A stretch of DNA of 64,000 bases from Bryobacterales bacterium (GTDB taxonomy: Bacteria > Acidobacteriota > Terriglobia > Bryobacterales > Bryobacteraceae): contig CAWCLV010000009.1 of NCBI GenBank assembly GCA_963796485.1, positions 16,801-80,800 on the forward strand, given 5' to 3'. A model generated the notes under the pieces. It was given only the letters and a program-made list of their open reading frames with translations, was not told the origin of the DNA and searched no databases. Each line of letters begins with the position of its first letter. Positions within the stretch are counted from its first letter, which is position 1. Shown piece by piece: positions 1,236-42,843 of this stretch. Made by a program: the position numbers and the translations under genes.

Positions 1236-2428
1236 CGAACCGCCTCCGCCAGGGAAGTCTCGACAACGAACATCGACTCGCCGCGCACCGAAAGCGCGAT
1301 CTTGTAGAACACGGTAAGCATCAGCGCCCCAATTGCCCAGATCCCCAGGGCGATCAGCGCCTCGGGAAGAGACGGCGCGTACGTGGTCACCGCCCCCAGC
1401 GGTGACGGCACAAAGGCGGCGACGATCAGGCCAATGCCTTTATCGATCCAAAGCGAAAAGAAGACCATGGCGCACGCTATAGCGAGCAAGTTGTTCCTAT
1501 AACGATAGCGCGGAACTATCAACAGAAGTAGCGACGCGGCAGCGAGCGCCATGGATAGCCACATCCACGGCACCAGCGGCCCGTGCCCCCCCAATCCGGT
1601 GAAAAGGTAGCGGAGCGGCTGTTCGTCTTCCGGTATCCCGCTGTAGAGCGCCGTGAAGAGTTCCATCAGGACGAAAAAGACATTGATCACCATCGCGTAC
1701 GTGACGACCAGGCTCAGCTTGCGCAGAGCGCCGGCTCCAGGCGGGAACTTTGTGAGCTTACCGATCAGCATGCATAAGAGGATCAGCAACGCGGGTCCGG
1801 CCGCGAAGGCCGATGCCAGGAAGCGGGGCGCCAGAATGGCGGTCAGCCAGAGAGGCCGGCCGGGCAGGCCGCAGTAGAGAAACGCCGTAACGGTATGGAT
1901 GCTGACGGCCCATGGGATCGACAACAGAATTACGGGACGGATCCAGCGGGGTGGCGCAACCCCTTCGCGCTCGGCGCGGAGTGTGATCCACGCAATTACT
2001 GCGTTCAGCACCAGGTAGCCTCCCAGCGAAACCATGTCCCAGAACATCAGCGAGTGCGGGGTCGGATAGAGCAGTACGTTGAAGACGCGCGAAGGCTGCC
2101 CCATGTCCACGAAGATGAAAAGCATGCACATGGTCACCGCCGCCACCGCCAGGAACTCTCCCAAAATAGTGATTCGCGCGAAATCCTTGACATGATGCAG
2201 GTAATAAGGCAGCACCACCATTACGGCGGAAGCGGCCACGCCTACCAAAAAGGTGAACTGGGCGATGTACAGGCCCCAGGAAACGTCGCGGCTCATGCCG
2301 GTCACGGCCAGGCCGTATTGCAGTTGGTAGAGATAGCACGCGAAACCGGCGCCGATCACCAGGAGAAGGCCGAGAATCCAGAGCCGGTACCCGCGGCTGC
2401 CTGTAAGTGCCTTCTCAAATAGAAACAT
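1232..2428 (-). CDS. dsrP: DsrP, NrfD/PsrC-type integral membrane quinone-interacting subunit
   Basis: 398-aa polytopic membrane ORF. It is the last gene in a canonical M-K-J-O-P order, 9 nt after dsrO. Confidence 0.85.
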   Translation of the reverse strand: MFLFEKALTGSRGYRLWILGLLLVIGAGFACYLYQLQYGLAVTGMSRDVSWGLYIAQFTFLVGVAASAVMVVLPYYLHHVKDFARITILGEFLAVAAVTMCMLFIFVDMGQPSRVFNVLLYPTPHSLMFWDMVSLGGYLVLNAVIAWITLRAEREGVAPPRWIRPVILLSIPWAVSIHTVTAFLYCGLPGRPLWLTAILAPRFLASAFAAGPALLILLCMLIGKLTKFPPGAGALRKLSLVVTYAMVINVFFVLMELFTALYSGIPEDEQPLRYLFTGLGGHGPLVPWMWLSMALAAASLLLLIVPRYRYRNNLLAIACAMVFFSLWIDKGIGLIVAAFVPSPLGAVTTYAPSLPEALIALGIWAIGALMLTVFYKIALSVRGESMFVVETSLAEAVR

Positions 2429-2437
2429 ATGGAATCC

Positions 2438-3157
2438 TCACACGATGTAGTAGACCTGCGGGTGCGTGCCCAGTTCGGGCTTTCGCCGAACCGTGTGCCG
2501 CGTCCGAAGGAGTTCCCGAATGGCCGAGCGCGGATCGGCGAGGTTGCCGAAGACCAGCGCTTTCTCCGGGCACGCCTCCACGCACGCCGGGGGCTTTCCG
2601 ACTGCGAGCCGCTCGCTGCAAAAATTGCACTTCTCCACAACGCCTTTGGTGCGGGTGGGAAATTCACGGTTCACATTGTGAATATAGGGGCGCGGGTCCA
2701 TCCAGTTGAAACTGCGGGAACCGTACGGACAGGCGGCCATGCAGTACCGGCAGCCGATGCAGCGGTGCCAGTCCATGGCAACGATTCCGTCCTCGCGCCG
2801 GAAGGTGGCTTGTGTCGGGCAGACCCGCACGCACGGGGGATTGTCGCAGTGGTTGCACAACAGCATGAATGGCACGGCCGGCACTTCCGCGTAATCCGCC
2901 TCGATGGCGAAGGCATGCTGCGCGGAATCCTTCCAGATCCAACGGACGTCGCGCCGAGGGTCGGGAATCGACGGGACGTTATGCGCCTGGTTGCAGGCGG
3001 CGATGCACTTCGTGCAATTCGGCTGCTTCAGGCACTTCGCCACGTCCACGACCATTCCCCAGCGCGCCGGCGTCACCGCGGCGCGCAACCTGCCCGCGCA
3101 GTTGGCGAGGAAGGAGAGTCCGCTGAGCCGCAGGAACGATTGCCTGGTGATCGTCAT
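2438..3157 (-). CDS. dsrO: DsrO, periplasmic 4Fe-4S ferredoxin-like subunit
   Basis: Start moved to [13 protein letters not shown] (Tat-like leader, 4-nt overlap with dsrJ) instead of track start 3421. Several Cys clusters are present ([34 protein letters not shown]...CVEACP). Confidence 0.85.
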
Positions 3158-3555
3158 TTGGCGCCCCCGGTGTTGGCCTTGAAGTCGGAGTGGCAGTCCC
3201 AACAAGGGATTGAAACAGCTTCGTAGTTGTGGCAGCGGTCGCAAAACTCGGCCCTGCCGGCGGTATGGCACTGTTCGAGACACGTCGAAGTGAGGCTCAT
3301 GTTGTAGCGCTGCCCGTTGAACGCCGTGAACTCGCGCCCTCCCTGCCGGACGACCTGCTCCCTCCAGTCGAGCAACAACTTCATGTGCGACGACTTCATG
3401 TAGGCCACGGGCGCCACACACTGCCGCGCACCGGCGGGCAGCACCGGGTTCGGCCCCTTGGGCGTAACCGCCGCGGAGAGGTTGTGCCAGAGCGGGAACG
3501 TGGCGAACACAAGGAAGATCGCCAAGGCCGTCCAGATAATGCCGCGATCACGCAT
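3154..3555 (-). CDS. dsrJ: DsrJ, membrane-anchored triheme cytochrome c
   Basis: 133 aa with an N-terminal hydrophobic anchor and exactly three CxxCH motifs (CLEQCH, CDRCH, CWDCH). Confidence 0.85.
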
Positions 3556-5158
3556 GGACCACCTCCGCCTTTGCCAGCGGCTCGCCGCGTAAGTCGGTGG
3601 TTCGTGGATGCTCGCCGCGCATGACGAGCGCGTTGCCCACCAGTTCGTGAATCCCGGCGACCTCCACCCCGGGCACCCAATACTCCAGAAGCGGCGGGAG
3701 AGTGGCTTTGTCGATGGCGCAGATGCACGTCAACAGGTTCACTCCGTAGCGCTCGTGGACGTATCTCACGGCATTGGCGCGAGGAAGTCCGCCGCGCATC
3801 CGCATTTCGAAATTTTCGTCCGTGCCCAGGCCCGACCCGCTCCCGCAACAAAACGTCTGCTCCCGAATCGTGTTCTCCGGCATCTCGTGGAACTGGTTGC
3901 ATACGCTGTGCAGGATATAGCGCGGCTCCTCGAGCAGCCCCATGGAACGCGCGGGGTTGCAGGAATCGTGAAACGTCACGTTCCAGCGATCGTTTCGGGA
4001 AGGGTCCAGCCGGAGCTTGCCGTTATGGATCAGGTCGGCCGTGAATTCGCAGATGTGCACCATCCTGGTGGATCGCGTATTCTCGAAGCGCGTGCCGGTT
4101 ACGGGGGAGACCGGCACCTCCAGGAAGTCGGCGGGCCCGTTCATCGTGTCCATGTACTGATGCAGGACACGCCACATGTGGCCGCACTCGCCGCCCAGGA
4201 TCCACTTCACTCCCAGCCGCTTGGCCTCCGCATAGATCTTGGCGTTCAGCCGCTTGATCATCTCGTGGGAGTTGAACAGGCCGAAATTGCCGCCTTCGGA
4301 GGCGTACGCGCTGAATGTATAATCCAGGCCAATCTCGTGAAACAGGGCCAGGTAGCCAAGGAACGTATAGTAATGCGGCGTCCCGAAGTAATCGGCCGAG
4401 GGCACGATGAACAGCACTTCGGCGCCCTTGCGGTTGATCGAGGCGTCCACCCGGATACCGGTGAGCTCTTCGAGTTCGTCCACCGCGAAATCCACACTGT
4501 CTTTGAAGCCATGCGGCTGCACACCGAGGTGATTACCGGTGCGAAAGCAGTTGGCCGCCGGTTCGAGCACCCAATTGATGTTGCACCCGATCAGGTTCAA
4601 TAACTCGCGGCCGATCATCGTGATCTCCGCGGTATCGATTCCATAGGGGCAGAACACCGAGCAGCGCCGGCACTCGGTGCATTGATAGAAGTAGTAGAAC
4701 CACTCCTTGATGACGTCTTCGGTCAGGTCGCGGGCTCCGGCAAGCTCGCCCAGGAGGCGGCCGGCCGGCGTGAAGTAGCGACGGTACACGCTCCGCATCA
4801 ACTCGGCGCGCAGCACCGGCATGTTCTTCGGATCGCCGGAGCCGAGGAAGAAGTGGCACTTATCCGCGCACGCCCCGCAGCGCACGCAGATGTCCATGAA
4901 AAGCCGGAAGGAGCGGAATTTTTCGAGCCGCTCCTTCATGCCGTCGAGGATGATCCGCTTCCAGTCCGGTGGAAGTTTCCAATCCTCGTCGAAGGGTTGC
5001 CACTCGCGGGCGTTAGGAAGGCCGAGATACTTCAGATTTTTGGGAAGAGCGCTATAACAAAAGGTGCCCTTGCGGAACTCGACCGCCGGATCCATCCAGT
5101 CGCGAGGCTGGGGCCCGTACTGAATCTGCACGAGTTCTTCCGGTTTCGGCTGGGACAT
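3548..5158 (-). CDS. dsrK: DsrK, HdrD-like cytoplasmic Fe-S/CCG-domain subunit
   Basis: 536 aa with Fe-S motifs CVRCGACADKC and CTECRRCSVFCP, plus a CCG-type motif (FCCGSGSG). It follows dsrM with a 3-nt gap. Confidence 0.9.
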   Translation of the reverse strand: MSQPKPEELVQIQYGPQPRDWMDPAVEFRKGTFCYSALPKNLKYLGLPNAREWQPFDEDWKLPPDWKRIILDGMKERLEKFRSFRLFMDICVRCGACADKCHFFLGSGDPKNMPVLRAELMRSVYRRYFTPAGRLLGELAGARDLTEDVIKEWFYYFYQCTECRRCSVFCPYGIDTAEITMIGRELLNLIGCNINWVLEPAANCFRTGNHLGVQPHGFKDSVDFAVDELEELTGIRVDASINRKGAEVLFIVPSADYFGTPHYYTFLGYLALFHEIGLDYTFSAYASEGGNFGLFNSHEMIKRLNAKIYAEAKRLGVKWILGGECGHMWRVLHQYMDTMNGPADFLEVPVSPVTGTRFENTRSTRMVHICEFTADLIHNGKLRLDPSRNDRWNVTFHDSCNPARSMGLLEEPRYILHSVCNQFHEMPENTIREQTFCCGSGSGLGTDENFEMRMRGGLPRANAVRYVHERYGVNLLTCICAIDKATLPPLLEYWVPGVEVAGIHELVGNALVMRGEHPRTTDLRGEPLAKAEVVHA

Positions 5159-5161
5159 GAC

Positions 5162-6157
5162 TCAGGACCTTTCGACCGGTAGGCCGGCCGCCTCGATCTT
5201 GTCGTGGAACTCCTCTTCCCATTCCTCGTAGGTGTGGACCTTCACGGGGTAATTCCAGGGGTTGACATGCCGCTTCATCCGGTTGTTGTTCGCGAGATTG
5301 CGGGTCGGGCTGAGGAATACGCCGCCCAGGTGTACCAGTTTGCTGAACGGTAGATACGCAGCCAGAGTACAAACCAGCATCAGATGAACGAAGAACAGCG
5401 CACCCGGATCGGAAGGCAGGGTGGGCGAGAAGACCGTCAGCGAAAGAGCAAGCTGCTTGACGGCCACGCCATCCACCCGTGAGAAGTACCGCATCCAGAC
5501 GCCTGTCCCGGTGATTCCCAGGAGGAGAAAGAGAGCGAAGTAATCCGTGAAGAGAGAGATGAACCGCACCTGCGGATCGCGAAAGCGCCGCTGCAGAAGG
5601 TAGAGAAGCGCCGCGAGCACGGCGACATCGGTGAGCAGGAGCGCGGGCGCTCCGATCCGGAAGAAGCCGTCCAGCTTCTCGAGCACCACCGCAACGCCGG
5701 GCACCGGCTCCACGAAGAACCGCAGATGCCGCAACAGAATAATCAGGAGCGACCAGTGGAATGCCAGCGCGCCGAGCCAAAGCCACCTGGCTTCTGCCTG
5801 AATCAGCCTGGGGCTTGCTTCAAGCCTCGACCGCGTGTTGCGGAAAAGGCTGCGGAACAGCAGAACTTCAAGCAGCATCCGGGCGACCACACCCGGCGTG
5901 GAATACGGGCTATCCAACCAGCCTGCCTTGATCCACGGCAATGACTTCTGCTGGCTGCAAACCGTCGGAATGCGAAATGGTACCGGCGACCTTGACCAGC
6001 GAATAACCCGCCAACTGAGTCCGGCTAACAGGATGGTCAGCGCGGCATACGGAACCGCGGCAGCCAGCGGCATCTGCACCCACGCAATCCGGCTCCCAGC
6101 CGCCGACAACAGCGAGATCGCGGCCACCAGCGATGCTGCCGCCAGCGCTTTTCTCAC
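5162..6157 (-). CDS. dsrM: DsrM, NarI-like dihaem cytochrome b membrane subunit
   Basis: 331-aa membrane ORF with His-bearing helices (FHWSLLIILLRHLRFF; FFVHLMLVCTLAAYLPFSKLVHLGG) typical of the NarI/HdrE/DsrM type. Confidence 0.85.
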   Translation of the reverse strand: MRKALAAASLVAAISLLSAAGSRIAWVQMPLAAAVPYAALTILLAGLSWRVIRWSRSPVPFRIPTVCSQQKSLPWIKAGWLDSPYSTPGVVARMLLEVLLFRSLFRNTRSRLEASPRLIQAEARWLWLGALAFHWSLLIILLRHLRFFVEPVPGVAVVLEKLDGFFRIGAPALLLTDVAVLAALLYLLQRRFRDPQVRFISLFTDYFALFLLLGITGTGVWMRYFSRVDGVAVKQLALSLTVFSPTLPSDPGALFFVHLMLVCTLAAYLPFSKLVHLGGVFLSPTRNLANNNRMKRHVNPWNYPVKVHTYEEWEEEFHDKIEAAGLPVERS

Positions 6158-26276: not shown

Positions 26277-26296
26277 CACTCGATAACGTATTTTGA

Positions 26297-26320: not shown

Positions 26321-26346
26321 GAGTTCCGGGAGGACGGGGCGAAATA

Positions 26347-28698: not shown

Positions 28699-29292
28699 AT
28701 GCCGGCTGGTGAGAGAATTGGCGTAATCCTGTCGCTGGCGGTTCTCGCCGGCTGCGGGAGTTTCGGACGCGTAAACCAGGGACAGGTGATTGCGTATGAC
28801 CGAAGTTCGGGGCTGATCACCCTGATCGGCGATTCGAACTACCGGGACCCGTCGCATCCCCGCTTCGATGTTCTTCCACCGGTCGAAATCCGGACTCCCG
28901 CCGATCCTGCCGAGATGGGCCCGGAACCGGAGCCCGGCAAGCTGCTGGAACTCGACTGGCGAAACCGCCGTGCCGTGATCTTCGATGCCGCGGAAGCCAG
29001 GATCAGGGCCATTTCCTACGAGGTGGTCTCCGAGCAGAATGGCGTTGCGCCGGACGATCCGCGCGTCAGCAGGGTTGTATACCCGGCCGTAGAACGCGAG
29101 CGTGGAACCATCGCCTCGTACTTCCCGCGATATCGCAAGCTGCTCGTCTTTTCCGTCCCGGCCGAATACCTCGGCCTGCCCTTAGACACCTGGAAGGCCG
29201 GCGACGAGATCCGGTATTACTACAAAGACCCGCAGCGCGCGCTGCGGCTGATGAACGTCAGCAAAACAGACCTGAACAAGGCGGGCAAATGA
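28699..29292 (+). CDS. Lipoprotein of unknown function (possibly DUF4881-like)
   Basis: Start placed at MPAGERIGVILSLAVLAGCGS (LAGC lipobox). About 197 aa with no other motif. The DUF4881 suggestion is from memory only. Confidence 0.55.
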   Translation: MPAGERIGVILSLAVLAGCGSFGRVNQGQVIAYDRSSGLITLIGDSNYRDPSHPRFDVLPPVEIRTPADPAEMGPEPEPGKLLELDWRNRRAVIFDAAEARIRAISYEVVSEQNGVAPDDPRVSRVVYPAVERERGTIASYFPRYRKLLVFSVPAEYLGLPLDTWKAGDEIRYYYKDPQRALRLMNVSKTDLNKAGK

Positions 29293-32640: not shown

Positions 32641-32902
32641 TCGAGTTAGGTGGTGAGGGGATACAACCGGCAATGGAAGGAAATCCGCATCCGTGGCGTA
32701 TTATGACCGTGGTGTTCCTCGGCGTGCTGCTGGTGTCTTTCTGCATCCAAAAGCTGTTCGATCCGGCCGGTCAATTCGCCGCCGCTCTGTTCCGGCACAA
32801 CGCCGCGCCCGTACACTCCCACACTTCCGGTATTGACCTCGCGCCCAAGGCACCCTAGTATAGAACTGGATTTTAAGATCGGAAATTCAGTTGGAGGCCT
32901 TC

Positions 32903-33151
32903 ATGCCAGTTACCGTCGAAATCCTCGCGGACGAGATGTACGCTCTCATTTCCGAATACGCCGGCAAGCGCAATCTCAAGGCCGGCGACCTGACCAAGGA
33001 AATGATCGCCCGGCATGGCGATGCAGCTTGCACCAAGGATGATTGCAAGCTGGCCATACGCGCCCTGATCGAATCGCAGCGATGTGTCTACAGCTATCTT
33101 GGCGGCTCTTACATTCAGCTGCCTCCCAAGGAATCGCCGTCGGGCGACTGA
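32903..33151 (+). CDS. Small winged-helix-like protein, tentatively DsrD-like
   Basis: 82 aa starting at an ATG with GGAGG 6 nt upstream (the track uses TTG at 32891). KLAIRALIESQRCVYSYLGGSYIQL loosely parallels the KKILTALVNDEVLEYWSSGSTTMYGL region of Desulfovibrio DsrD as I recall it. It lies immediately upstream of dsrN, as in dsrABDN loci. Confidence 0.45.
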   Translation: MPVTVEILADEMYALISEYAGKRNLKAGDLTKEMIARHGDAACTKDDCKLAIRALIESQRCVYSYLGGSYIQLPPKESPSGD

Positions 33152-33184
33152 ATCCGTAACGAAAGCACGGCGGCGCTGGCCGAA

Positions 33185-34555
33185 GTGCCCCGCCTGGTCG
33201 TCGCCGGACTTTCGGGGGAGTCGGGCAAGACTCTCGTCTCACTGGCGATGTTGTTGGAACTGCGGCGCCGGGGTCTGCCTGTGCGCGCATTCAAGAAGGG
33301 GCCTGACTACATCGATGCTTCCTGGCTCGAGTGGGCCACGAACAAGCCGGTGCGCAATCTCGACACCTATCTCATGGGATTCGATCGCGTCTCCGGTTCT
33401 TTCGCATGGCACGCCGTACCTGCCGGCCTGAACCTGGTCGAAGGGAACCGCGGGCTGTTCGATGGTCTCGATGCGCGCGGCACCCACAGCACGGCGGAAC
33501 TCGCCAAGTCTCTGCAGGCGCCCGTGGTCCTGGTGGTGAACGCAACCAAGATCACGCGCACGGCCGCGGCCCTGGTGCTCGGATGCCAGAAGCTGGACCC
33601 GGCGTTGTGGATTGCCGGCGTGATCGTAAACCAGGTGGCGGGGGCGCGGCACGCCCGTATCGTGCGGGAAGCCATCGAATCCACCTGCTTGATCCCGGTG
33701 CTGGGAGTCGTGCCACGCGCTCAACCCGGCGCGTTTCCGCCGACCCGCCACCTTGGCCTGGTCACTCCGGACGAATACACCGGCCGGGAGGTGCTCGCGT
33801 GCCATCTGCTCGACCTGGTAGTTCCCCACCTCGACGTGGACAGACTGCTGAAAATAGCCCGGGATGCGCCACCCCTGCCCACGCCGGCGTTGGAATCCGA
33901 TGGCGGCTCGGAGGGACGCGGCCTGACAATCGGCTACCTGCACGACAGCGCATTCTGCTTCTACTATCCGGAAAACTTCGATGCGCTGAGGGCGTCCGGG
34001 GCGCGGCTGGTTCCCGTCTCCGCGCTCTCAGACGTGGAGTTGCCGGCTGAGTTGGATGCGCTTTACATCGGGGGCGGATTCCCGGAAACGCACGCGCACG
34101 CACTGTCGGCCAACTCGCGGTTTCTCGCATCGGTGCGAGCCCGCGCCCTCGCCGGGCTGCCGGTCTATGCCGAGTGCGGGGGCCTGATGTTCCTCTCCCG
34201 CTCCATGCTCTGGCAGGGGACGCGGTACCCCATGGCCGGGGTTCTGCCGTTCGATGTCGAAGTGGAGGCGGCGCCCCAGGGCCACGGCTATATCGAATTG
34301 GAAGTGGACCGTCCGAATCCCTTCTTTGAGGCGGGCACGCGACTCCGCGGCCACGAGTTCCACTATTCGCGCATCGTTCTCGAAGGCGCCCCCCCGGCGA
34401 CGGCTTGCGCCGTGCTTCGCGGCACTGGATGCTTCTCCGGGCGTGACGCCGTGGTGTCGCACAACGTGTGGGCGTCCTATGCGCATCTGCATGCCCTGGC
34501 TACGCCGGAATGGGCGCGCGGATTTCTGCGGGCCGCCCGGGTCAGTGTCGCGTAA
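33185..34555 (+). CDS. dsrN: DsrN (CbiA/CobB-type a,c-diamide synthase; siroheme amidation)
   Basis: 456 aa with N-terminal VVAGLSGESGKT (ATP-binding) and a C-terminal glutamine amidotransferase part (YAECGGLMFL, GHEFHYS). Confidence 0.8.
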   Translation: MPRLVVAGLSGESGKTLVSLAMLLELRRRGLPVRAFKKGPDYIDASWLEWATNKPVRNLDTYLMGFDRVSGSFAWHAVPAGLNLVEGNRGLFDGLDARGTHSTAELAKSLQAPVVLVVNATKITRTAAALVLGCQKLDPALWIAGVIVNQVAGARHARIVREAIESTCLIPVLGVVPRAQPGAFPPTRHLGLVTPDEYTGREVLACHLLDLVVPHLDVDRLLKIARDAPPLPTPALESDGGSEGRGLTIGYLHDSAFCFYYPENFDALRASGARLVPVSALSDVELPAELDALYIGGGFPETHAHALSANSRFLASVRARALAGLPVYAECGGLMFLSRSMLWQGTRYPMAGVLPFDVEVEAAPQGHGYIELEVDRPNPFFEAGTRLRGHEFHYSRIVLEGAPPATACAVLRGTGCFSGRDAVVSHNVWASYAHLHALATPEWARGFLRAARVSVA

Positions 34556-35333
34556 CGCCGTTCTCCCCGGCAGGCACCAATTCCACCGGAATCCGGTCGA
34601 TCAGCGCCAGAATCTCAGTTGCCTTGAACGGTTCTTCGATCTTGGCAAACACCCCAGGGGTACGGATAGAGTGGCTCAGCGAGCCTTTGCGAATCGCCAG
34701 AATGATCCTGCTTCCGGCGGTGCGCGGATCGGACGCCAGGGCATCCAGTAGAGCCATTCCGAGACTCTCCAGAACGGCTTGGTCAATCACGACAAAAGCC
34801 GGCCGGAATACCGTAATGATCGCGGAGGCGTCATAACCGCGTCGCGCGAACCGAAAGTCCACGGAGCCGCTCTCTCGCTTCGCCAGGTCTTGAATCAGAT
34901 TCTCGTCGCGGGTGATCACCAGCACGTTCGTAGGTTCCCCGTGCACCCGCCGGTAGTAGGGGCACTCCTGGCATGCACTCGTGCAAAAGCGCCTTGCGTG
35001 GTTGGCGCCCTTCACGAGGTTGACCATGCGGAAACACCACATCGCCTGAACCTGATGAACGATGCAATCCAGGCACGCCGCACCGGGATCGTGGTTCATG
35101 TATTCCCAGCAGCGCATGGGACGCGAGCAAAGCGCCGCGTGGTCTTCCCACTGCTTCTCGCCGGCCGGATCCTGAGAGAGCACCAGGAGTAGATCCCGCT
35201 CCTCCACCCGGTAATGCCCACCGGCCGTTCGACTCGCCGGCAGGCGCCCCTTCTTGATCCATTTCAGAACCGTGTCCGGCTTGACGGAGCACATTCGGGC
35301 GGCTTTTCCGGTGGTCAGCAACGTAGCTGCCAT
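34542..35333 (-). CDS. Excisionase/MerR-type HTH regulator with a central 8-Cys region and a receiver-like C-terminal domain
   Basis: Start placed at MAATLLTTGKAARMCSVKPDTVLKWIKKGRLPASRTAGGHYRV (HTH_17-like). The Cys-rich block is at 34962-35129. The C-terminal CheY-like pattern reads VLVITRDEN...FVVIDQ. Confidence 0.65.
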   Translation of the reverse strand: MAATLLTTGKAARMCSVKPDTVLKWIKKGRLPASRTAGGHYRVEERDLLLVLSQDPAGEKQWEDHAALCSRPMRCWEYMNHDPGAACLDCIVHQVQAMWCFRMVNLVKGANHARRFCTSACQECPYYRRVHGEPTNVLVITRDENLIQDLAKRESGSVDFRFARRGYDASAIITVFRPAFVVIDQAVLESLGMALLDALASDPRTAGSRIILAIRKGSLSHSIRTPGVFAKIEEPFKATEILALIDRIPVELVPAGENGVTRH

Positions 35334-35527
35334 GACGGGGAACCTCAGATCCGCTGTCCATATTGTCCACAAGAACGAACGCCTGGTCAATAGGTAAGAG
35401 GTCTGATTTTCTCGGTTTCGCGCCACGGCGGCGCTTCCGTCCGGGTTCTCTCCCACAGACGCGCTGAATATCACGCAACCCACTGATAATTGAGTACTTA
35501 AACAACATCAAGAACGCAAAAAACACG

Positions 35528-35556
35528 GTGACTTTTTGCAATTCCCGCTCTATTAT
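35528..35556 (+). promoter_or_regulatory. Candidate sigma70 promoter for sat
   Basis: GTGACT, 17 nt, TATTAT, about 68 nt upstream of the sat ATG. AGGAGG lies 7 nt before the ATG. Pattern match only. Confidence 0.35.
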
Positions 35557-35623
35557 TTAGCTGAATCATATCGGAAAGTCTGAAAATTCGACTCTCGCAA
35601 CTGTTGCTGACAGGAGGCTATCG

Positions 35624-36889
35624 ATGAGTAATCTGATTCTTCCGCATGGGGGTGGAGACCTGCTTCCCCTCCTGCTCGATGACGAGGCCAGGCGGGAAGA
35701 ACTCCGCAAAGCCGAACACCTTAAAAAAGTACCGATGACCAGCCGCGAAACCAGCGATCTGATCATGATGGGAATCGGCGCATTCACCCCGCTCCGCGGG
35801 TTCATGGGCCGCGACGATTGGCACGGCTGTTGTGACTCCTACCGGATGGTGAGCCGGCCCGGGCTCTTCTGGCCCATCCCGATCACCCTCTCGGCGGAAG
35901 AGGACTACACCAAATCGATCGCGATCAATGAGGAAGTGGCCCTCTGGGATACCGAAACCGAAGCGATCATGGGGACCATGCGGGTTACCGAAAAATACAA
36001 GATCGACAAAGACTACGAGTGCAAGCAGATCTTCCGCACCACGGATCCCGCCCACCCCGGTGTGCAAAAAGTGATGGAGCAGGGTTGTGTAAATCTGGCG
36101 GGACCCGCAAAGGTCCTCTCCGAGTCGTACTACCCCGAGATGTTCCCCGGCATCTACCAGCGCCCGGCCGAAGCCCGCAAACAGTTTGCGGAAAGAGGCT
36201 GGTCCACGGTCGCCGCCTTGCAGCTTCGCAATCCGATGCACAACTCGCACGCTTATCTTGCGTGGACCGCAATCGAGGTCTGCGACGGCGTCTATATCCA
36301 TCAACTCGTGGGCAAACTCAAACCGGGCGATATCCCCGCCGAGGTACGGGTGAAAGCCATCGACGCGCTGGTGAACAAGTACTTCCGCCGCGACCGCGTG
36401 ATTCAAGGCGGATATCCGATGGAGATGCGGTACGCCGGCCCTCGCGAGGCCCTGCTGCACGCCCTCTTCCGCCAGAACTACGGCTGCACGCACCTGATCG
36501 TAGGACGCGACCACGCCGGAGTCGGCGACTATTACGGGCCGTTCGACGCGCAGAAGATCTTCAACGAAATTCCGGCCGGCGCCCTGCTTCTACAGCCGCT
36601 CTGCATGGACTGGACGTTCTACTGCTACCAGTGCGGAAGCATGGCCTCCATGAAGACCTGCCCGCACGAGAGCAAGGCCGTCATCGACGAGAACGGGAAC
36701 TACAAGGGCGGCGCGCGCCTGCTGCTTTCCGGAACGCTGTTGCGCAAACTGATGAGCGAGGGCAAGCCGGTTCCGGCGGAGTTCTCGAAACCCGAAGTCA
36801 TCGCGATTCTGAAGGAGTACTACGACAGCCTCGAAGAGAAGGTCGAGGTCAAACTCCACGGCGCCGCGACTGGTGATACGAAACACTAA
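35624..36889 (+). CDS. sat: Sulfate adenylyltransferase (ATP sulfurylase)
   Basis: 421 aa with [13 protein letters not shown] and VGRDHAGVG motifs. Confidence 0.92.
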
Positions 36890-36904
36890 AACCGGGGGAT
36901 CCAA

Positions 36905-38368
36905 ATGGCGCTGATTCCGGTGCTGCCTCCTGAAATCCGGCGGGATCCCAAATCCCGCCGGCTCGCCACCGATGCGGAGTTGGAACGGGCCCTTGCCGTC
37001 GCAAAGAAACCGGGCACGGTGGAACGGCAGCGGCTTCCGGTGCGCTATCACGTGGAGGATTGCGCTCCCGGAGATCGCCCGCGCCGTTTCCTGGAGGCCT
37101 TCGCCGCCATACTCAAGCACACCCATTACCGCCTGGCGTTGGAACACTATATCCGAGTGAGCGCCAAGTGCGCCCGCTGCGCTACGCACTGCCAGGTGTA
37201 CATGGCCACCGGCGCTCCGCGCGACATCCCGTGCCACCGCAGCGAGCTTCTGCTCTCGGTATACCGCAGGCATTTCACCGTGGCGGGCGTGCTGCGCGGC
37301 CGGGTTCTCGGTGACCCGGGCCTTACCGATGAGAAGATCCGGGAAATGGCGGACGCTTTCTACAACTGCACCGCGTGCCGCCGCTGCACCCTGGAGTGTC
37401 CGATGGGGATCGACCACGGGCTCGTCACGCACCTCGGCCGCTACATACTCTCGGAAATCGGGATCGTCCCTCGCGGGCTGGCGGTAAGTGTCAGGGAGCA
37501 ACTCGCGGGCAAGTCGGGTAACACGTCCGCGGTTCCCGTTCCCGCCCTGCTCGATAGCCTCGAATTCCTCAGCGACGACATGAAAGAGCAGACCGGCAGA
37601 GACATCCCCTTTCCGATCGACAGGCAGGGCGCCGAGTACCTGTTCCTCGCTCCCGTATCCGACTACCTCATGGAAGCCGACACGCTCATGGGCTGCGCCG
37701 CGGTCTTTCGGGCAACCGGCGACTCCTGGACCATCGGCACCGGCTATTTCGACGCGATCAACTACGGGTTGTTCTACAACGATCAGGTGATGGAGCACGT
37801 GGCATGTAAAATCCGGGCCGAGGCCGAGAGGCTCCAGGTCAGGAAGCTCCTGATCGGCGAATGCGGCCACGCCTCCCGAACCGCCAAAGCCTTTTATCCC
37901 ACTTACTGCGGCGGCGCCGGCGCGCTTCCGGTGACCAGCATTCTCGAATACACGCACGCCGCATGGAAACAGGGGCGGCTCAAACTGAACCCGGCGGCGA
38001 TCGCCGAAAAGGTGACCTATCACGACCCCTGTAACTTCGCCCGCTCCGGATGGATCATCGACCAGCCCCGCGAACTGCTGCGCGCCTTCTGCAGCGACTT
38101 TGTCGAAATGACTCCCCGCGCCCGCCAGAACATTTGCTGCGGAGGAGGAGGGGGCACGGTCTCGATCGATGAAATCAAGCCATATCGCACGCTGGTGGGC
38201 GGGCGCGCCAAGGCCGAACAGATTCGCGCTACCGGCGCCAGGTACTGCGTCGCGCCATGCGCTAACTGCAAGAAGCAACTTCGCGAACTGGTAGAGGAAC
38301 ACAAGATTGATTGCCAGATTGTGGGTCTTCACGACCTTCTGTTCAAGGCAATCCGGTTTGAAGATTAG
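36905..38368 (+). CDS. HdrD/DsrK/HmcF-like Fe-S oxidoreductase with CCG domains
   Basis: 487 aa with CARCATHC, CTACRRCTLECP, HDPCNFAR and NICCGGGGG motifs. It starts 15 nt after sat. Confidence 0.8.
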   Translation: MALIPVLPPEIRRDPKSRRLATDAELERALAVAKKPGTVERQRLPVRYHVEDCAPGDRPRRFLEAFAAILKHTHYRLALEHYIRVSAKCARCATHCQVYMATGAPRDIPCHRSELLLSVYRRHFTVAGVLRGRVLGDPGLTDEKIREMADAFYNCTACRRCTLECPMGIDHGLVTHLGRYILSEIGIVPRGLAVSVREQLAGKSGNTSAVPVPALLDSLEFLSDDMKEQTGRDIPFPIDRQGAEYLFLAPVSDYLMEADTLMGCAAVFRATGDSWTIGTGYFDAINYGLFYNDQVMEHVACKIRAEAERLQVRKLLIGECGHASRTAKAFYPTYCGGAGALPVTSILEYTHAAWKQGRLKLNPAAIAEKVTYHDPCNFARSGWIIDQPRELLRAFCSDFVEMTPRARQNICCGGGGGTVSIDEIKPYRTLVGGRAKAEQIRATGARYCVAPCANCKKQLRELVEEHKIDCQIVGLHDLLFKAIRFED

Positions 38369-38488
38369 GAACCCGTGGTAGAAGTGCACAACCACCGCTT
38401 ACTGGCGTGCGCGGCTCTGTAGGGTCAGTGACTTACTGAACCGCGACCGTGAGGGAGCGGCCTTTGCCACAGGCTGTTAGGAGGCGAC

Positions 38489-39238
38489 TTGGAGGGCTGG
38501 ATCGAATTCGGCCGGGGACCGCTGTTCCGGTTCGCGTTCGTGCTGATGCTGCTGGGGCTGGCACGCCTGTTGCTGCTTACGTTCATCGGGCTTTGGGAAG
38601 TCGCGCGAACCACTCCCAGCTCTTCCCTGCCGTGGCCGGACCTCGTCCGGAACACCTTCGGATGGCTGATCCCGGTGGGGCGGCTCTGGCGCCGGCGCCC
38701 GGTTTACAGCACGATCTCCTTCGCCTTCCACATCGGCCTTCTGCTCGTGCCGCTCACTCTCGCGGCACACGTACTGCTATGGAAGCGGGCCGTGGGTTTT
38801 GCGTGGCCCGCTATTCCCTATTCGCTGGCGAACTGGTTGACCGTGACCGTCATCTGCACGGGGCTGGTGCTGTTCCTGGCCAGGGCGCTGCACACGGGTA
38901 GCCGCAGCCTTAGCCGCGCGCAGGACTTCGCCTGGCCGCTCCTGCTGGTGACACCATTCCTGAGCGGCTACCTGTGCTCGAACGCGGCGTTGAGCCCACA
39001 GGCGTACCGCGGGTTCTTTCTGGTCCACATCTATTCGGCCGACGTGGTCCTGCTGCTGATTCCTTTCACCAAGATCGCCCACTGCGTCCTGGCGCCGCTC
39101 TCGCAGCTGGTGAGTGCGATGAGTTGGAAACTGACTCCGGGCGCAGGCGATCGAGTCGAAGAAACGCTGGGCTACGCGGACCGGCCTACCTGGATCGAGG
39201 GCTCTCGCCTCGCGGAGCCGGTGCGCAAGGAGGCATGA
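38489..39238 (+). CDS. NarI/DsrM/HmcE-like cytochrome b membrane subunit
   Basis: TTG start with AGGAGG 4 nt upstream. The product has 5-6 TM helices, and FLVHIYSADVVLLLIPFTKIAHCV parallels FFVHLMLVCTLAAYLPFSKLVHLG of the DsrM in this window. Confidence 0.7.
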   Translation: MEGWIEFGRGPLFRFAFVLMLLGLARLLLLTFIGLWEVARTTPSSSLPWPDLVRNTFGWLIPVGRLWRRRPVYSTISFAFHIGLLLVPLTLAAHVLLWKRAVGFAWPAIPYSLANWLTVTVICTGLVLFLARALHTGSRSLSRAQDFAWPLLLVTPFLSGYLCSNAALSPQAYRGFFLVHIYSADVVLLLIPFTKIAHCVLAPLSQLVSAMSWKLTPGAGDRVEETLGYADRPTWIEGSRLAEPVRKEA

Positions 39239-39999
39239 TGCAAACCGCAATCCTCAACGATACAACGAAGTGCATCGGCTGCAACGAATGCGCGCTGGCC
39301 TGCCACAAAGCGAATCACCTGGCGGCCGATGAGCCCCGAAGATGGGACTTGGACGACGGCCTGTCCGCCCGCAACTGGACATCGGTGATCGAGCCCGCGC
39401 CCGGGAAGTACGTCCGCAAACAATGCCGGCACTGCCTGGAACCGGCCTGCGCCTCCGCCTGCCCCGTCGGCGCGCTCACGCGGACCGCGATGGGTCCGGT
39501 GGTCTACGATTCTTCGAAATGCATGGGATGCCGCTACTGCATGATGGCCTGTCCCTTCGGCATCCCGCGCTACTCCTGGGCCGAGCCGGTGCCCTACGTG
39601 CGCAAGTGCATTCTCTGCTACGACCGCTTGCGCGAGGGAGAGAAGCCCGCCTGCACGGAGGCATGCCCGGCGAAAGCGACGATCTTCGGCGATCGCCGGG
39701 AGTTGCTCGCGGAAGCGCATCGGCGCCTTCGGGAGCAACCGGACCGGTATGTGCAGAAAGTCTGGGGCGAGCAGGAAATTGGCGGCACCTCCGTGCTCTA
39801 CCTCTCCGATCTCGATCTGTCGTTCCTCACCGGAAACCGTTCCCTCGGCATGGAGCCGCTTCCCGAACGCACCAGCCTGGCCATGGAGGCCGTACCGTTC
39901 ACATTTGCGGGCGTGCTGGCGGGTCTTGCCGGCCTGAGCTGGATCATCCGGCGGAGAATCAAGCTGGCCGAGATCCCGGAGGAGCCGCACCGTGACTAG
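39235..39999 (+). CDS. 4x[4Fe-4S] ferredoxin-like subunit (DsrO/HmcB/HybA type) with C-terminal TM helix and no obvious signal peptide
   Basis: Start MMQTAILNDTTKCIGCNECALAC overlaps the upstream stop (ATGA). Further motifs are CRHCLEPACASACP, CMGCRYCMMACP and CILCYDRL...CTEACP. The C-terminal helix is FTFAGVLAGLAGLSWII. Confidence 0.8.
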   Translation: MMQTAILNDTTKCIGCNECALACHKANHLAADEPRRWDLDDGLSARNWTSVIEPAPGKYVRKQCRHCLEPACASACPVGALTRTAMGPVVYDSSKCMGCRYCMMACPFGIPRYSWAEPVPYVRKCILCYDRLREGEKPACTEACPAKATIFGDRRELLAEAHRRLREQPDRYVQKVWGEQEIGGTSVLYLSDLDLSFLTGNRSLGMEPLPERTSLAMEAVPFTFAGVLAGLAGLSWIIRRRIKLAEIPEEPHRD

Positions 40000-41830
40000 A
40001 GTCAGGCGGTTCAAGCTCCTGTTATGGATCCTGGCGGGGCTGGCGACGGCGGTAGCCTGTTCGCGGTTCGTGTTCGGCCTCGGCGCCACCACCAATCTGA
40101 CCGACGCCACTCCCTGGGGCATCTGGATCGGCTTCGACGTGATGAGCGGCGTCGCTCTAGCCGCCGGCGGCTTCATCGTGACCGCGACGGTCTATGTCTT
40201 CCGGCTGGATCGATTCCACACCATCGTCCGGCCGGCCGTGCTGACCGCCTTCCTCGGATACGCGGCGGTTGCGGCAGGCCTGTTATTCGACCTCGGCCTG
40301 CCTTGGAACATCTGGCACATGATCGTGTTCTGGAACCCGCACTCCGCGCTCTTCGAAGTGGGCTGGTGCGTGATGCTGTACCTGACCGTGCTGGCGCTCG
40401 AATTCTTCCCCGTGCCGGCCGAGGAGTTTCGCGCCCTGGCGCGCGTGCGCACGTTCCTGCTGCGGTTTCGCTTTCCGCTGGTGCTCATCGGAATCGGCCT
40501 CTCCACGCTGCACCAGTCTTCACTCGGCTCGCTTTACCTGATCATGCCCTACCGGCTGCACCCTCTCTGGTACACGCCCCTGCTTCCCGTGTTATTCCTG
40601 ACGTCGGCGATCGGCCTGGGCCTGATGATGGTAATCGCCGAGAGTCACTTTACGGCGTACCTCTACCGGAGGCAGCCAGAGACGCCGCTCCTGGAGCGAC
40701 TGGGCGCGGCTGCACGGTGGGTGCTTCTGTTCTACGCCGTATTGCGCTTTGGCGATTTGGCCGGCCGCGGCCGCGTTGCCGAACTGGCGGGAGCCGGATG
40801 GCAGGTCAAGCTGTTCTGGGTGGAACTGGCCATGATGGCGCTCGGCCCGGCAATCCTGCTCTCCGTGCCGCGCGTGCGTGCTTCCCGTGCGGGGCAGTGG
40901 ACGGCGGCGATCATCGGCATCTGCGGCGTGATCCTGAACCGCATCGATGTGGGCGGACTGGCCCATCAGCGGCAGACGCCGCTATACCTCCCTTCCTGGA
41001 CCGAGATCGCGATCAGCGCCGGGGTGGTTGCCGGGGGCGTGCTTGCGTTCCTCTTCTTCATCGAGCATTTCCGGATCTGGGAGGAACGTCCCGTCGATCC
41101 TCAAGCCGACCCCTCGAACTTACCGGAGTTCGACCCCGTGGGAATGACGTGGCTGGGTATTCCGGGCGTCGCGGGACGAACCGTCTACTCCCTGGGATTC
41201 ATCGTGGCAGCCGCCGCGGGGTTCGCCCTCCTGGCCCCACAGCCCGCCGCCAGCCGCGGAATCGAGAAGACCGCGGCCCACCGCGCGCGCGGCGCGGAGA
41301 TCCTCTGGATCGATGGCAACCTGAACGGCCGCGGCGTGTCCTTTCCGCACCAGAAGCACATCGATTCGCAAGGCGGCAAGCTCTCCTGCCCGCGCTGTCA
41401 TCATATGAACCTCCCGCGCGATCAGGCCAGCGGCTGCTATCAATGCCATCGCGATATGTATACCGCCAGCGACGCGTTCGGGCACGACTGGCACGCCGCA
41501 CCCCACGGCGGCAAGCTGGCTTGCGGCCAGTGCCATCCGCCGGACCAGCCTCGTACCGCCTTGACCAGCAAGCCATGTACGGCCTGCCACAAGGACCTGA
41601 TCCCGCCCCAAGCCCCGTACCGAATTGCCGGTTACAACGCCCGAAGCTATGCGGATTCCATGCATGGGCTCTGCATCGGCTGTCACCGGCAGGAGGCCGT
41701 AAAGCGGAACAAGCCCGACATGCCGCGTTGCGCGTGGTGCCATAAAGAGTCGCGAACTTTCGTAGACGGCGCGGCACTGGCGCAGGCCGGCGAGCCCGCG
41801 CGCACGAACGTTGTTTTGCCGCCCTGGTAG
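39992..41830 (+). CDS. NrfD/DsrP/HmcC-like membrane subunit fused to a C-terminal six-heme class-III-like cytochrome c
   Basis: GTG start overlapping the upstream stop. About 430 aa are polytopic membrane domain. The tail has FPHQKH plus six CxxCH motifs (CPRCH, CYQCH, CGQCH, CTACH, CIGCH, CAWCH) between 41387 and 41742. Confidence 0.8.
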   Translation: MTRVRRFKLLLWILAGLATAVACSRFVFGLGATTNLTDATPWGIWIGFDVMSGVALAAGGFIVTATVYVFRLDRFHTIVRPAVLTAFLGYAAVAAGLLFDLGLPWNIWHMIVFWNPHSALFEVGWCVMLYLTVLALEFFPVPAEEFRALARVRTFLLRFRFPLVLIGIGLSTLHQSSLGSLYLIMPYRLHPLWYTPLLPVLFLTSAIGLGLMMVIAESHFTAYLYRRQPETPLLERLGAAARWVLLFYAVLRFGDLAGRGRVAELAGAGWQVKLFWVELAMMALGPAILLSVPRVRASRAGQWTAAIIGICGVILNRIDVGGLAHQRQTPLYLPSWTEIAISAGVVAGGVLAFLFFIEHFRIWEERPVDPQADPSNLPEFDPVGMTWLGIPGVAGRTVYSLGFIVAAAAGFALLAPQPAASRGIEKTAAHRARGAEILWIDGNLNGRGVSFPHQKHIDSQGGKLSCPRCHHMNLPRDQASGCYQCHRDMYTASDAFGHDWHAAPHGGKLACGQCHPPDQPRTALTSKPCTACHKDLIPPQAPYRIAGYNARSYADSMHGLCIGCHRQEAVKRNKPDMPRCAWCHKESRTFVDGAALAQAGEPARTNVVLPPW

Positions 41831-41844
41831 CGGGAGGGAGAACC

Positions 41845-42843
41845 ATGCCGAATTTGTTCAGCGCCCTCGCGGAGCAGGCCTGCGGCGCCAAACGTTGCGA
41901 GGACGCAATCCACGCGCTCGAAAGCGACTTGCAGCGTCAGCCCTCGGACGCGCTCGCCTGCTACGAACTCGGGCTATGCTATAGCGGCGGCTGCCATTCT
42001 CACTCGCTGGTCTCTCCGGAAATGGCGGTTGCGTACCTGCGCCGGGCGCTCTGCCTGACCAACGATACCGGACTCCTGCGCGCCTACATCCTGGAAGCCC
42101 TGGGCAACACGCTCGCTGGTGAAACAAACTCCCGAAATGCGGACGCGCTATGCGAAGCGATCGCCTGCCACTCTCAAGCCGCCGACCTATACCGCGCCGC
42201 CGGAAAGTCTGCCGATCGCGCCCGGGCGCAGTTCAACCTGGGCAACTCTTGTTGCGAACTGTCCGAGGCAACCGGGGAAAACCACTGGCGGGAAGCGATC
42301 GGCCATTATGAGGATGCCCTGGCGGTCCGCACTCCCGGGAAAGACCCGGCAGGACGCGCTGCCGTACTCGAGAACCTCGGGACGGCTTACCGCCAGCTTC
42401 GCGGCAGCTATGTGGAAAAGGCAGTCGGCTGTTATCGGCGGGCGCTCCGGTTGTGTTCTCCAACCGGGAGCCCTGCCCGTTATGCGGCTCTTCAAAACAA
42501 TCTCGGCAATGCCCTCCTTTCCCTCCCGGTCACCGATGAAACAACGGCCTGCAGGAATGCACGGCGGGCGCTCCGCCGCTTCAACTGCGCCCTGAATGTT
42601 CTCTCCCCCGATCCCCCCGGCTGCAGCTACGGCATTACTCAGTGCAACAGGGGGCAGGCCTATCGCCGGCTGTCCCGTGGACGGGACCGGCAAGCCGCCC
42701 TCGCCGCGAAATGCCTGAAGGACGCGTACGCCGTCTTTGTCTCATGCGGCGAACAGCAATACGCCGAAGTAGCGAAAGAACAGCTGAATCAACTTCGCGG
42801 CGGCGCGTGCGAACATGAAGATCGTCATGCAAATCGCTCCTGA
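41845..42843 (+). CDS. TPR-like repeat protein, Cys-rich
   Basis: 332 aa with recurring A-x-x-x-Y/L-x-x-A-L helical repeats (AVAYLRRAL, AIGHYEDAL, AVGCYRRAL). Confidence 0.6.
   Translation: MPNLFSALAEQACGAKRCEDAIHALESDLQRQPSDALACYELGLCYSGGCHSHSLVSPEMAVAYLRRALCLTNDTGLLRAYILEALGNTLAGETNSRNADALCEAIACHSQAADLYRAAGKSADRARAQFNLGNSCCELSEATGENHWREAIGHYEDALAVRTPGKDPAGRAAVLENLGTAYRQLRGSYVEKAVGCYRRALRLCSPTGSPARYAALQNNLGNALLSLPVTDETTACRNARRALRRFNCALNVLSPDPPGCSYGITQCNRGQAYRRLSRGRDRQAALAAKCLKDAYAVFVSCGEQQYAEVAKEQLNQLRGGACEHEDRHANRS

Follow-up and report, generated by a model that had tools for sequence, protein, structure and literature searches.

Which electron pathway is encoded by the four genes that directly follow sat, the ATP sulfurylase gene, in a 64,000-nucleotide stretch of DNA from a Bryobacterales bacterium (assembly GCA_963796485.1, contig CAWCLV010000009.1, positions 16,801 to 80,800 of the forward strand)? 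Pfam and NCBIfam scans of the products of this stretch, which we call the window and whose own numbering is used throughout, identify it as the dissimilatory sulfur island of an acidobacterium. An earlier note made from the sequence alone had taken the four genes, here named K2, M2, O2 and P2c and together the module, for a second DsrMKJOP- or Hmc-like membrane redox complex coupled to sat. That interpretation is partly supported, and its anatomy is correct; on balance we favor the view that the four products form one transmembrane redox complex, an Hmc/Tmc-type conduit that connects the periplasm or the quinone pool to a DsrC-type disulfide in the cytoplasm. A role with a DsrC-type disulfide, which the note had also raised, is the best-supported reading given the invariant CCG site of K2, the recurrent linkage of the module to dsr genes, and its co-induction with sulfate reduction in the metagenome-assembled genome (MAG) CO124.

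The four genes lie on the plus strand. The TAA stop codon of sat ends at 36889 and the ATG of K2 is at 36905, confirming the gap of 15 nucleotides (nt) that had been described, and a GGGGGA ribosome-binding site stands before K2. K2 (36905..38368, 487 amino acids) encodes a DsrK/HdrD-like CCG iron-sulfur (FeS) protein; M2 (38489..39238, 249 amino acids), which begins with a TTG start codon after AGGAGG, a NarI/HmcE-like cytochrome b; O2 (39235..39999, 254 amino acids) a HybA/HmcB-like 4x[4Fe-4S] protein; and P2c (39992..41830, 612 amino acids, GTG start codon) an NrfD protein fused to a six-heme c3-type domain. The module types are those the note had named (CCG, NarI-like, FeS, and NrfD fused to six hemes), and together they span cytoplasm, membrane and periplasm. 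The genes had also been called tightly packed, which holds for the last three, as M2 and O2 overlap by 4 nt (ATGA) and O2 and P2c by 8 nt, but not for K2 and M2, which are separated by a 120-nt spacer (38369..38488, plus strand) whose 3' end holds the AGGAGG ribosome-binding site; among related loci the K2-M2 distance varies between -44 and 331 nt. The GC content at third codon positions of the four open reading frames (ORFs), 0.73-0.83, resembles that of the neighboring genes.

The cytoplasmic end of the proposed conduit is the most conserved. Conservation was counted on 35 adjacency-filtered orthologs of K2 and on 43-44 homologs of M2, O2 and P2c. K2 matches the Pfam families CCG (45 bits) and Fer4_8 and contains no transmembrane segment, so it is predicted to be cytoplasmic; a pair of ferredoxin-type Cys motifs is joined by a CCG domain at the C-terminus, and the Cys residues of both are invariant, including all five of the catalytic motif C376-x34-C411 C412 G-x39-C452-x2-C455 (38030..38269, plus strand). 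Among the best 120 database matches K2 is 75-92% identical, vs 63-88% for P2c. A sequence search of the PDB returned a sole, distant match for K2, 9ojn ("iron-sulfur-binding reductase", E = 1.7e-11), and no match for P2c. M2 has about five hydrophobic helices, and its residues H81, H94, H180 and H198 are invariant; this NarI-type His pattern leads us to predict that M2 binds two hemes b. K2 thus carries the HdrD-type signature CxnCCGxnCxxC and M2 the four His in two helices of a NarI-type membrane module. The Pfam families proposed as a check in the earlier note (CCG, Fer4_11, NrfD and Cytochrom_CIII) were all found, with one shortfall: the Nitrate_red_gam match of M2 is weak, at 20.7 bits under a cutoff of 22.9.

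The other two subunits place FeS clusters and hemes beside the membrane. O2 (Fer4_11, 79 bits) has 16 invariant Cys in four ferredoxin motifs, enough for four clusters, and ends in a hydrophobic helix; behind the helix lies a conserved RRR(M/I)K patch, which can be aligned with the tail anchor of HybA. In P2c, the NrfD match (PF03916, residues 35-318) scores 66.2 bits vs a gathering threshold of 25.8, and the HybB/HmcC-like NrfD-family core, which we call P2 (residues 1-367; 39992..41092, plus strand), is predicted to have ten transmembrane helices and a cytoplasmic N-terminus; the N-terminus is rich in K and R. Hydropathy places an eleventh transmembrane helix at residues 397-417 (41180..41242, plus strand), where the AlphaFold2 model has a helix at 398-413 with low confidence. 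That model, a monomer built from 15 sequences with a mean predicted local distance difference test score (pLDDT) of 54 and a cytochrome domain below 50, was used for helix counting only, and its helices agree with the hydropathy count. The C-terminal class III (c3-type) cytochrome domain (41348..41830, plus strand) matches Cytochrom_CIII (48 bits), Cytochrome_C7 and Cytochrom_c3_2, with CxxCH motifs at residues 466, 482, 511, 529, 561 and 580; all six motifs, together with H453, H471, H498, H501 and H558, are invariant in 44 homologs. Because the helix count is odd (10+1) after a cytoplasmic N-terminus, the heme domain is predicted to be periplasmic; the periplasm is the site of c-type heme attachment.

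To which family does such a set belong? Scores against NCBIfam equivalog models, read against the curated cutoffs (in parentheses, in bits), give for K2 DsrK 294 (400), TmcB 198 (735) and HmcF 196 (750); for M2 HmcE 127 (275) and TmcC 116 (240), with no DsrM match; for O2 HmcB 244 (420), HybA 200 (263), DsrO 105 (200) and QrcC 69 (400); and for P2 HmcC 294 (550), HybB 275 (450), QrcD 118 (570) and DsrP 32 (350). The heme domain of P2c reaches 20 bits on the HmcA model (400). The same ranking, with every score under its cutoff, recurs in the 35 K2 and 44 P2c homologs scanned, whose best E-values (3e-64 for HmcF among the 35 K2 and 4.4e-98 for HmcC among the 44 P2c) are well short of the cutoffs; for M2 on the HmcE model, the window protein alone was scored. 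The module is therefore placed by these scores in the Hmc/Tmc/Dsr superfamily, with three subunits Hmc-like and one DsrK-like, and in none of the curated families. The earlier note had allowed for nesting in an Hmc, Tmc or Hme clade with the same gene order; judged by curated cutoffs in place of a tree, the subunits fall outside the Hmc, Tmc and Dsr families, and the order of the genes differs.

The same comparison bears on whether the module is simply a duplicated DsrMKJOP that performs quinol-dependent reduction of DsrC trisulfide. DsrK is the best model for K2, which has an intact CCG motif and scores 294 bits on it where the DsrK of this genome scores 735; some JGI records name homologs "[DsrC]-trisulfide reductase subunit K", and the same five functional module types are present. 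Yet the module proteins are distant from the Dsr proteins of the window itself, with BLAST identities of 34% for K2 and DsrK, 34% for O2 and DsrO and 26% for P2 and DsrP, and no significant similarity of M2 to DsrM (BLAST E = 0.06). A six-heme c3-type domain takes the place of DsrJ, of which the module has no homolog, the gene order differs, and M2, O2 and P2 are Hmc/Hyb-like, not Dsr-like. The label of a second DsrMKJOP given in the earlier note accordingly fails for M2, O2 and P2, whose best models are HmcE, HmcB and HmcC (M2 being unlike DsrM, and P2 scoring 32 bits on DsrP), and we regard plain duplication as highly improbable.

O2 has an anomalous feature. No signal peptide was found in O2 of the window or in any homolog examined (the window and 43 loci), and in at least 25 loci an in-frame stop codon precedes the first Cys motif by 11-30 codons, too short a distance to encode a signal peptide. 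E. coli HybA is 36% identical to O2, in an alignment that starts at HybA residue 39; the first 38 residues of HybA, its twin-arginine translocation (Tat) signal region, have no counterpart in O2, and no Tat-signal partner gene is encoded in the module cluster. The RRR(M/I)K patch and tail anchor of O2, together with the HybB topology of P2, nevertheless argue for a periplasmic position of the FeS domain. Three explanations can be offered: a partner encoded at some other site, an unconventional mode of export, or a cytoplasmic O2, in which case electrons would take a path unlike that of the Hmc model. O2 had been described earlier as a 4x[4Fe-4S] protein of the DsrO/HmcB kind; the type stands, while the absent export signal had been overlooked. 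For a signal-less, tail-anchored FeS protein with a HybB-like partner, export together with a Tat-signal [FeFe] hydrogenase has been proposed (bioRxiv 10.1101/2023.11.02.564894).

One alternative is that O2 and P2c are HybA and HybB, i.e. that the module provides the membrane electron transfer of a group-2 [NiFe] hydrogenase. Database names of homologs ("Ni/Fe-hydrogenase cytochrome b subunit", "HybB-like") point that way, as does the listing of the CO124 module under "NiFe hydrogenase group 2 - Hyb" in PMC10564751. The identity of O2 to HybA is matched by that of P2 to E. coli HybB (32% over 342 amino acids), in which R89, Y99, E148 and H184 align with P2c R80, Y90, E137 and H174; replacements of these four HybB residues lower hydrogen oxidation, according to the work as cited in PMC8076601. 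Signal-less O2 could likewise be co-exported with a Tat-signal hydrogenase, as in the bioRxiv proposal. Against this, the HybA (200 bits) and HybB (275 bits) scores are under their cutoffs of 263 and 450 and lower than those for HmcB and HmcC, no hydrogenase subunit gene occurs beside the window module or among the recurrent neighbors at 44 loci, and the E. coli hyb operon is without CCG, NarI-like or cytochrome c parts. A hydrogenase role is, in our judgment, very unlikely.

Expression evidence comes from CO124, the genome of a sulfate-reducing acidobacterium. The locus L086 (JARLGM010000007.1) encodes module products of 475, 254, 250 and 613 amino acids that match CO124 genes 670-673 (1428, 765, 753 and 1842 nt) on NODE_7_length_92532 (PMC10564751 Supplementary Data 2). 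In that data set these genes go from about 0 reads per kilobase per million mapped reads (RPKM) under oxic conditions to 1-7.6 RPKM under anoxic, sulfate-reducing conditions (log2 fold change -4.1 to -5.9; adjusted p 1.6e-4 to 1.8e-12); dsrMKJOP of this MAG behaves alike, both in level and in pattern (PMC10564751). Dyksma & Pester 2023 place the module genes under the heading "NiFe hydrogenase group 2 - Hyb / hydB" (PMC10564751 Supplementary Data 2), so that the module was already on record, with its expression, under a misleading label.

This pattern also bears on direction, since the same complex could run oxidatively, with electrons from DsrC-bound sulfur passing via K2 and M2 to quinone and the periplasmic hemes and then to oxidases or external acceptors. 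The window has dsrL beside dsrAB, as do many of the sulfur-linked module loci; reverse operation of the pathway in these Acidobacteria is discussed by Hausmann et al. (PMC6018796), and Hmc of D. alaskensis has been proposed to run from cytoplasm to periplasm (PMC4215793). The CO124 module, however, is silent in oxic conditions and induced in anoxic ones while sulfate is being reduced (PMC10564751), and dsrD, a reductive-mode marker, is present. Oxidative operation therefore appears quite unlikely to us, and the Hmc/Tmc-type conduit, probably running reductively, remains the reading that we prefer.

How general is the association with sulfur genes? Relatives of the P2c fusion in databases number in the thousands; each of the 120 best is 602-641 amino acids long and carries NrfD and cytochrome c3 domains, and dozens of full-length fusions occur among 50%-identity cluster representatives. 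An exact-sequence look-up returned no identical record for the fusion, whose nearest relative is 88% identical (locus L001). The closest relatives of the genes studied here belong to MAGs of Bryobacteraceae and "Candidatus Sulfopaludibacter". A scan of one genome per GTDB species yielded 80 loci, to which further loci were added by exact protein look-up; K2-M2-O2-P2c stand in the same order in 51 fetched loci, among which L002/L003 and L004/L005 are each one locus fetched twice. The module occurs in Acidobacteriota (Bryobacterales, Terriglobia, Vicinamibacterales and Thermoanaerobaculia), Zixibacteria, Ignavibacteria, Kapabacteria and Melioribacteraceae, Gemmatimonadota, Planctomycetota and Eisenbacteria. 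A dsr, apr or sat gene lies within 10 kb at 12 of the 29 loci that have 5 kb or more on each side and at 17 of the 41 whose flanks total 8 kb or more, vs 0/21 in the outgroup (Fisher p = 2.3e-4), counts that include related genomes and the two duplicated loci and so overstate independence. The outgroup consisted of 21 loci from the same scan with HybA/HybB-like pairs and without K2 and M2. Recurrent linkage of homologous operons to sulfur genes, on which the earlier note had made its case depend, is thus borne out by the 17 of 41.

The linkage occurs in at least five arrangements. The order sat-module-TPR is found in the window, L001 and L044; dsrMKJOP-(dsrD-dsrN)-module in L002, L011 and L028; dsrL-dsrC-dsrMKJOP-module-sat, reversed relative to sat, in L010; and module-(kinase, regulators)-dsrAB-144aa-dsrL-dsrN-dsrC, where 144aa is a conserved hypothetical gene, in L025, L030, L037, L040, L046 and L055. 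Divergent dsrBA lies upstream in L060, and aprB about 6 kb upstream in L053, L054 and L056. Such differing arrangements indicate that the module has been juxtaposed with sulfur genes repeatedly. Across phyla it is the dsr cluster that recurs as a partner, and adjacency to sat is lineage-specific; the coupling to sat that the earlier note emphasized is real in the window, L001 and L044 and, reversed, in L010, but it does not name the general partner.

The loci outside this linkage speak for another alternative, in which the module is a general quinol:cytochrome c or extracellular electron-transfer unit, unrelated to sulfur and carried along with anaerobic gene islands. Twenty-four of the 41 loci (~59%) have no sulfur gene within 10 kb. 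The module frequently brings regulators of its own: a PAS histidine kinase directly after P2c at 27/44 loci (e.g. L004 11857-14608), receiver-domain proteins, usually two, following the module at 29/44, and a sigma-54-type activator before it at 15/44, a regulatory set that the window module is without. In Korobacteraceae (L004/L005) the neighbors are CO-dehydrogenase-like, rhodanese and metal-resistance genes. On the other side, K2 with its invariant CCG thiol/disulfide site is the most conserved subunit, the dsr linkage is far above that of the outgroup and occurs in several independent arrangements, and in CO124 induction of the module accompanies that of dsr, apr and sat. We consider a sulfur-unrelated function unlikely.

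Several points nonetheless weigh against the Hmc/Tmc-type conduit to DsrC that we favor. DsrC is the putative acceptor of K2 on grounds of homology and gene context. The missing export signal of O2 is unexplained if the protein is periplasmic, and a cytoplasmic O2 would invalidate the proposed electron path. The absolute expression of the CO124 module is low (RPKM <8), and induction by anoxia is common to many genes. To these must be added the overstated independence of the linkage counts, the 24 loci without a sulfur neighbor and the 27 with a PAS histidine kinase directly after P2c.

With these reservations, a path for electrons can be proposed. Hmc and Tmc of Desulfovibrio are proposed to link cytochromes of the periplasm electronically to an acceptor in the cytoplasm, for example DsrC (PMC4215793); by analogy, the periplasmic six-heme domain of P2c would be the point at which electrons enter or leave, in exchange with periplasmic donors or acceptors. 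O2 would wire this domain to the quinone site of P2, with possible coupling to proton movement as in HybB, and transmembrane transfer to K2 would run through the two b hemes of M2. At its CCG cluster, K2 would reduce or, in reverse, oxidize a protein disulfide or trisulfide, most likely that of DsrC. The module could thereby give these organisms a further path to sulfite reduction, of the Hmc/Tmc kind, in addition to DsrMKJOP.

In this genome, the module appears to have been set into a unit that begins with sat. The sat product (35624..36889, plus strand; 421 amino acids) matches Pfam ATP-sulfurylase and PUA_2 and NCBIfam NF003166 (467 bits, cutoff 387). A promoter-like site, GTGACT-17-TATTAT (35528..35556, plus strand), lies upstream of sat; it is a consensus match only, and the sole plus-strand one in a consensus scan of 35300-42200, a region in which no terminator-like site was found at the module gene junctions. 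From this layout sat is the apparent first gene of the transcription unit. The gene for a TPR protein (41845..42843, plus strand; 332 amino acids; Pfam TPR_12) starts 14 nt after P2c, as it also follows the module in L001, and is possibly the last or second-to-last gene of the unit. In CO124 the TPR ortholog (gene 302), which is induced under anoxia (log2 fold change -6.5), directly adjoins sat, in an order PPDK-dsrD-dsrN-HTH-sat-TPR (genes 307 to 302) that is the synteny of the window minus the module; the CO124 module is on another contig, beside TauE, Alph_Pro_TM and cytidylate-kinase-like genes. This synteny without the module shows the link to sat to be lineage-specific and suggests that a conserved sat-TPR pair received the module by insertion between them. 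Here the module, set between sat and its usual TPR neighbor, would be transcribed with sat from the sat promoter. The K2-M2 spacer was also considered as a regulatory RNA or terminator and dropped, since its fold is no better than that of shuffled sequences (z = -0.38) and no terminator-like site lies there.

Is the association of a transmembrane complex with sat itself new, as the earlier note supposed? It is not: sat-aprBA-qmoABC operons are classical (PMC6338057), and "dsrM2/dsrK2" are listed beside sat in the peatland Acidobacteria SbA2 and SbA3 (Hausmann et al. 2018, PMC6018796). Equating the module with those genes was rejected as unproven, because locus-tag order and gene counts do not fit: the genes of Hausmann et al. 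are an M-then-K pair next to aprB or dsrA, too few for the four-gene module, and judging by gene order they are probably a different paralog. In Gemmatimonadota we observed a NarI-like and CCG pair, also M-then-K, beside aprB (L053 2050-3042 and ~3375-4655; also L054 and L056), whose CCG protein is ~31% identical to K2; this pair is probably of the "dsrM2/dsrK2" type and would represent a third paralogous family.

Divergent from sat lies the gene of an HTH_17/MerR-like regulator (34542..35483, minus strand; Pfam), whose middle region is rich in Cys and whose C-terminal part resembles a receiver domain. The gene adjoins sat in L001, L044 and CO124 (gene 304) as well, ~40% identical homologs are carried by Gemmatimonadota L052 and L059, and the protein may be a redox-sensing regulator of the sat unit. 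Farther upstream on the plus strand are dsrD, an 86-amino-acid ORF, and dsrN (together 32891..34555); the DsrN product matches CbiA and GATase_3 in Pfam, and the 86-amino-acid product is near-identical to CO124 DsrD. These are preceded by two TauE/SafE-family (sulfite exporter-like) genes (26293-27324 and 27617-28684), an Alph_Pro_TM gene (29289-30053) and a PPDK-like gene (30088-32640), so that the plus-strand order runs from the TauE/SafE pair through Alph_Pro_TM, PPDK-like, dsrD and dsrN to the divergent regulator and sat. The CO124 module (L086) is flanked by TauE and Alph_Pro_TM genes too. Three cytidylate-kinase-like (Cytidylate_kin2) paralogs are scattered through the island (22150-22959 and 24278-25414, plus strand; 43767-44564, minus strand), two of which, at 22150-22959 and 43767-44564, include a BON domain; homologs lie beside the CO124 module (L086 3704-4513) and in L001.

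The canonical sulfur genes form a minus-strand run from 19519 down to 1232, in the order aprB-aprA, two small genes, qmoABC, dsrAB, a 144-amino-acid hypothetical, a dsrL-like gene, dsrC, a dsrT-like ORF and dsrMKJOP, and the named sulfur genes of this strand are all above NCBIfam equivalog cutoffs. This holds for all five products of dsrMKJOP (1232..6157, minus strand), the paralogous complex used for comparison above, which the earlier note had located correctly. The small genes between qmoA and aprA (15860-16942 and 16653-17009, minus strand) are conserved, and one of them encodes a CxxCxxCC Zn/Fe-chelating domain; the same pair occurs in CO124 (genes 1368 and 1369), where it is induced under anoxia. 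The 144-amino-acid conserved hypothetical between dsrB and dsrL (8663-9097, minus strand) has no Pfam or NCBIfam match. Homologs hold the same position in L025, L037, L046 and L055, its CO124 ortholog (gene 1362) is strongly induced under anoxia, and it may be an unnamed dsr-associated protein.

What would such a module mean for sulfur metabolism? Metagenomics now assigns much of terrestrial sulfate and sulfite reduction to phyla without cultured sulfate reducers, and the energy conservation of these non-classical reducers is still modeled on Desulfovibrio; they are credited with DsrMKJOP and Qmo, and sometimes Qrc. The module, a conserved and regulated Hmc-like complex that accompanies dsr genes and in CO124 is induced with them, offers a concrete candidate for the electron link from periplasm to cytoplasm that is missing from this picture. 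A stronger proposal, which we hold to be doubtful, is that DsrC is joined to the periplasm or quinone pool chiefly by this module in the non-classical dsrAB phyla (Acidobacteriota, Ignavibacteria/Kapabacteria, Zixibacteria, Gemmatimonadota, Planctomycetota and Eisenbacteria), where it would have the role that Hmc/Tmc and soluble cytochrome c3 play in Desulfovibrio. Were this so, a module directly upstream of dsrAB might stand in for DsrMKJOP, redox cycling of DsrC could be connected through the six-heme domain to carriers in the periplasm or outside the cell, and the signal-less FeS subunit would imply an undescribed route of export or assembly. On a practical level, the NrfD::hexaheme fusion is a simple marker gene that is currently annotated as a hydrogenase subunit, which inflates the H2 metabolism inferred from soil metagenomes; together with the signal-less, tail-anchored FeS protein, it raises questions about assembly and proton coupling in NrfD-type complexes.

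The compact form of the module has no name, and literature searches on Hmc-like and dsrM2K2 terms found no description of it; its parts, however, can be compared with those of known complexes. Qrc (QrcABCD) has no cytoplasmic subunit, whereas the module has a CCG protein and no gene like the molybdopterin-like QrcB. TmcABCD shares with the module a CCG protein, a NarI-like cytochrome b and a c3-type cytochrome, and has been proposed to pass periplasmic electrons to DsrC (PMC4215793); unlike the module, it has a separate tetraheme TmcA as well as TmcD, and neither an NrfD-like nor a periplasmic FeS subunit. The HybA-HybB pair of E. coli hydrogenase 2 resembles O2-P2 in its tail anchor and in the functionally tested HybB residues, but hybOABCDEFG encodes none of the CCG, NarI-like or cytochrome c parts, and the hydrogenase subunits HybO and HybC have no gene beside the module in the window or among the recurrent neighbors of the 44 loci. 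FeS/HybB-like pairs beside c-type cytochromes, including a signal-less variant, have been described (bioRxiv 10.1101/2023.11.02.564894); there the cytochrome is separate, not fused, and here K2 and M2 add a cytoplasmic thiol/disulfide part.

DsrMKJOP (HmeABCDE) has the same set of module types, a DsrK-type CCG motif that K2 retains, and a linkage to dsrAB and dsrC that the two have in common in many genomes. It differs in its DsrJ-type triheme subunit, which the module is without, and in its order, M-K-J-O-P as opposed to K-M-O-P, and a complete canonical dsrMKJOP coexists with the module in the same window. The closest likeness is to HmcABCDEF, in which HmcF (CCG), HmcE (NarI-like), HmcB (C-tail 4x[4Fe-4S]) and HmcC (HybB-like NrfD), four of the six subunits, correspond to K2, M2, O2 and P2, and which also has a periplasmic multiheme cytochrome of the c3 family and the same layout from periplasm through membrane to cytoplasm. 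HmcA, however, is a separate protein with sixteen hemes, whereas the module has six, fused to the C-terminus of the NrfD subunit via an extra helix; the Hmc order A-B-C-D-E-F contrasts with F-E-B-C::cytochrome in all 51 loci; no fifth small gene inside the module unit corresponds to the small membrane subunit HmcD; and HmcB has a Tat signal and a C-terminal anchor, of which O2 keeps the C-tail, along with its 16 Cys, but not the Tat signal. Hmc is found in Desulfovibrionales, and the module in Acidobacteriota, relatives of Bacteroidota, Gemmatimonadota and other phyla. The fused six-heme domain, the F-E-B-C::cytochrome order and the lack of HmcD thus set the module apart from the Hmc of Desulfovibrio, as a variant of a known superfamily and not a new principle.

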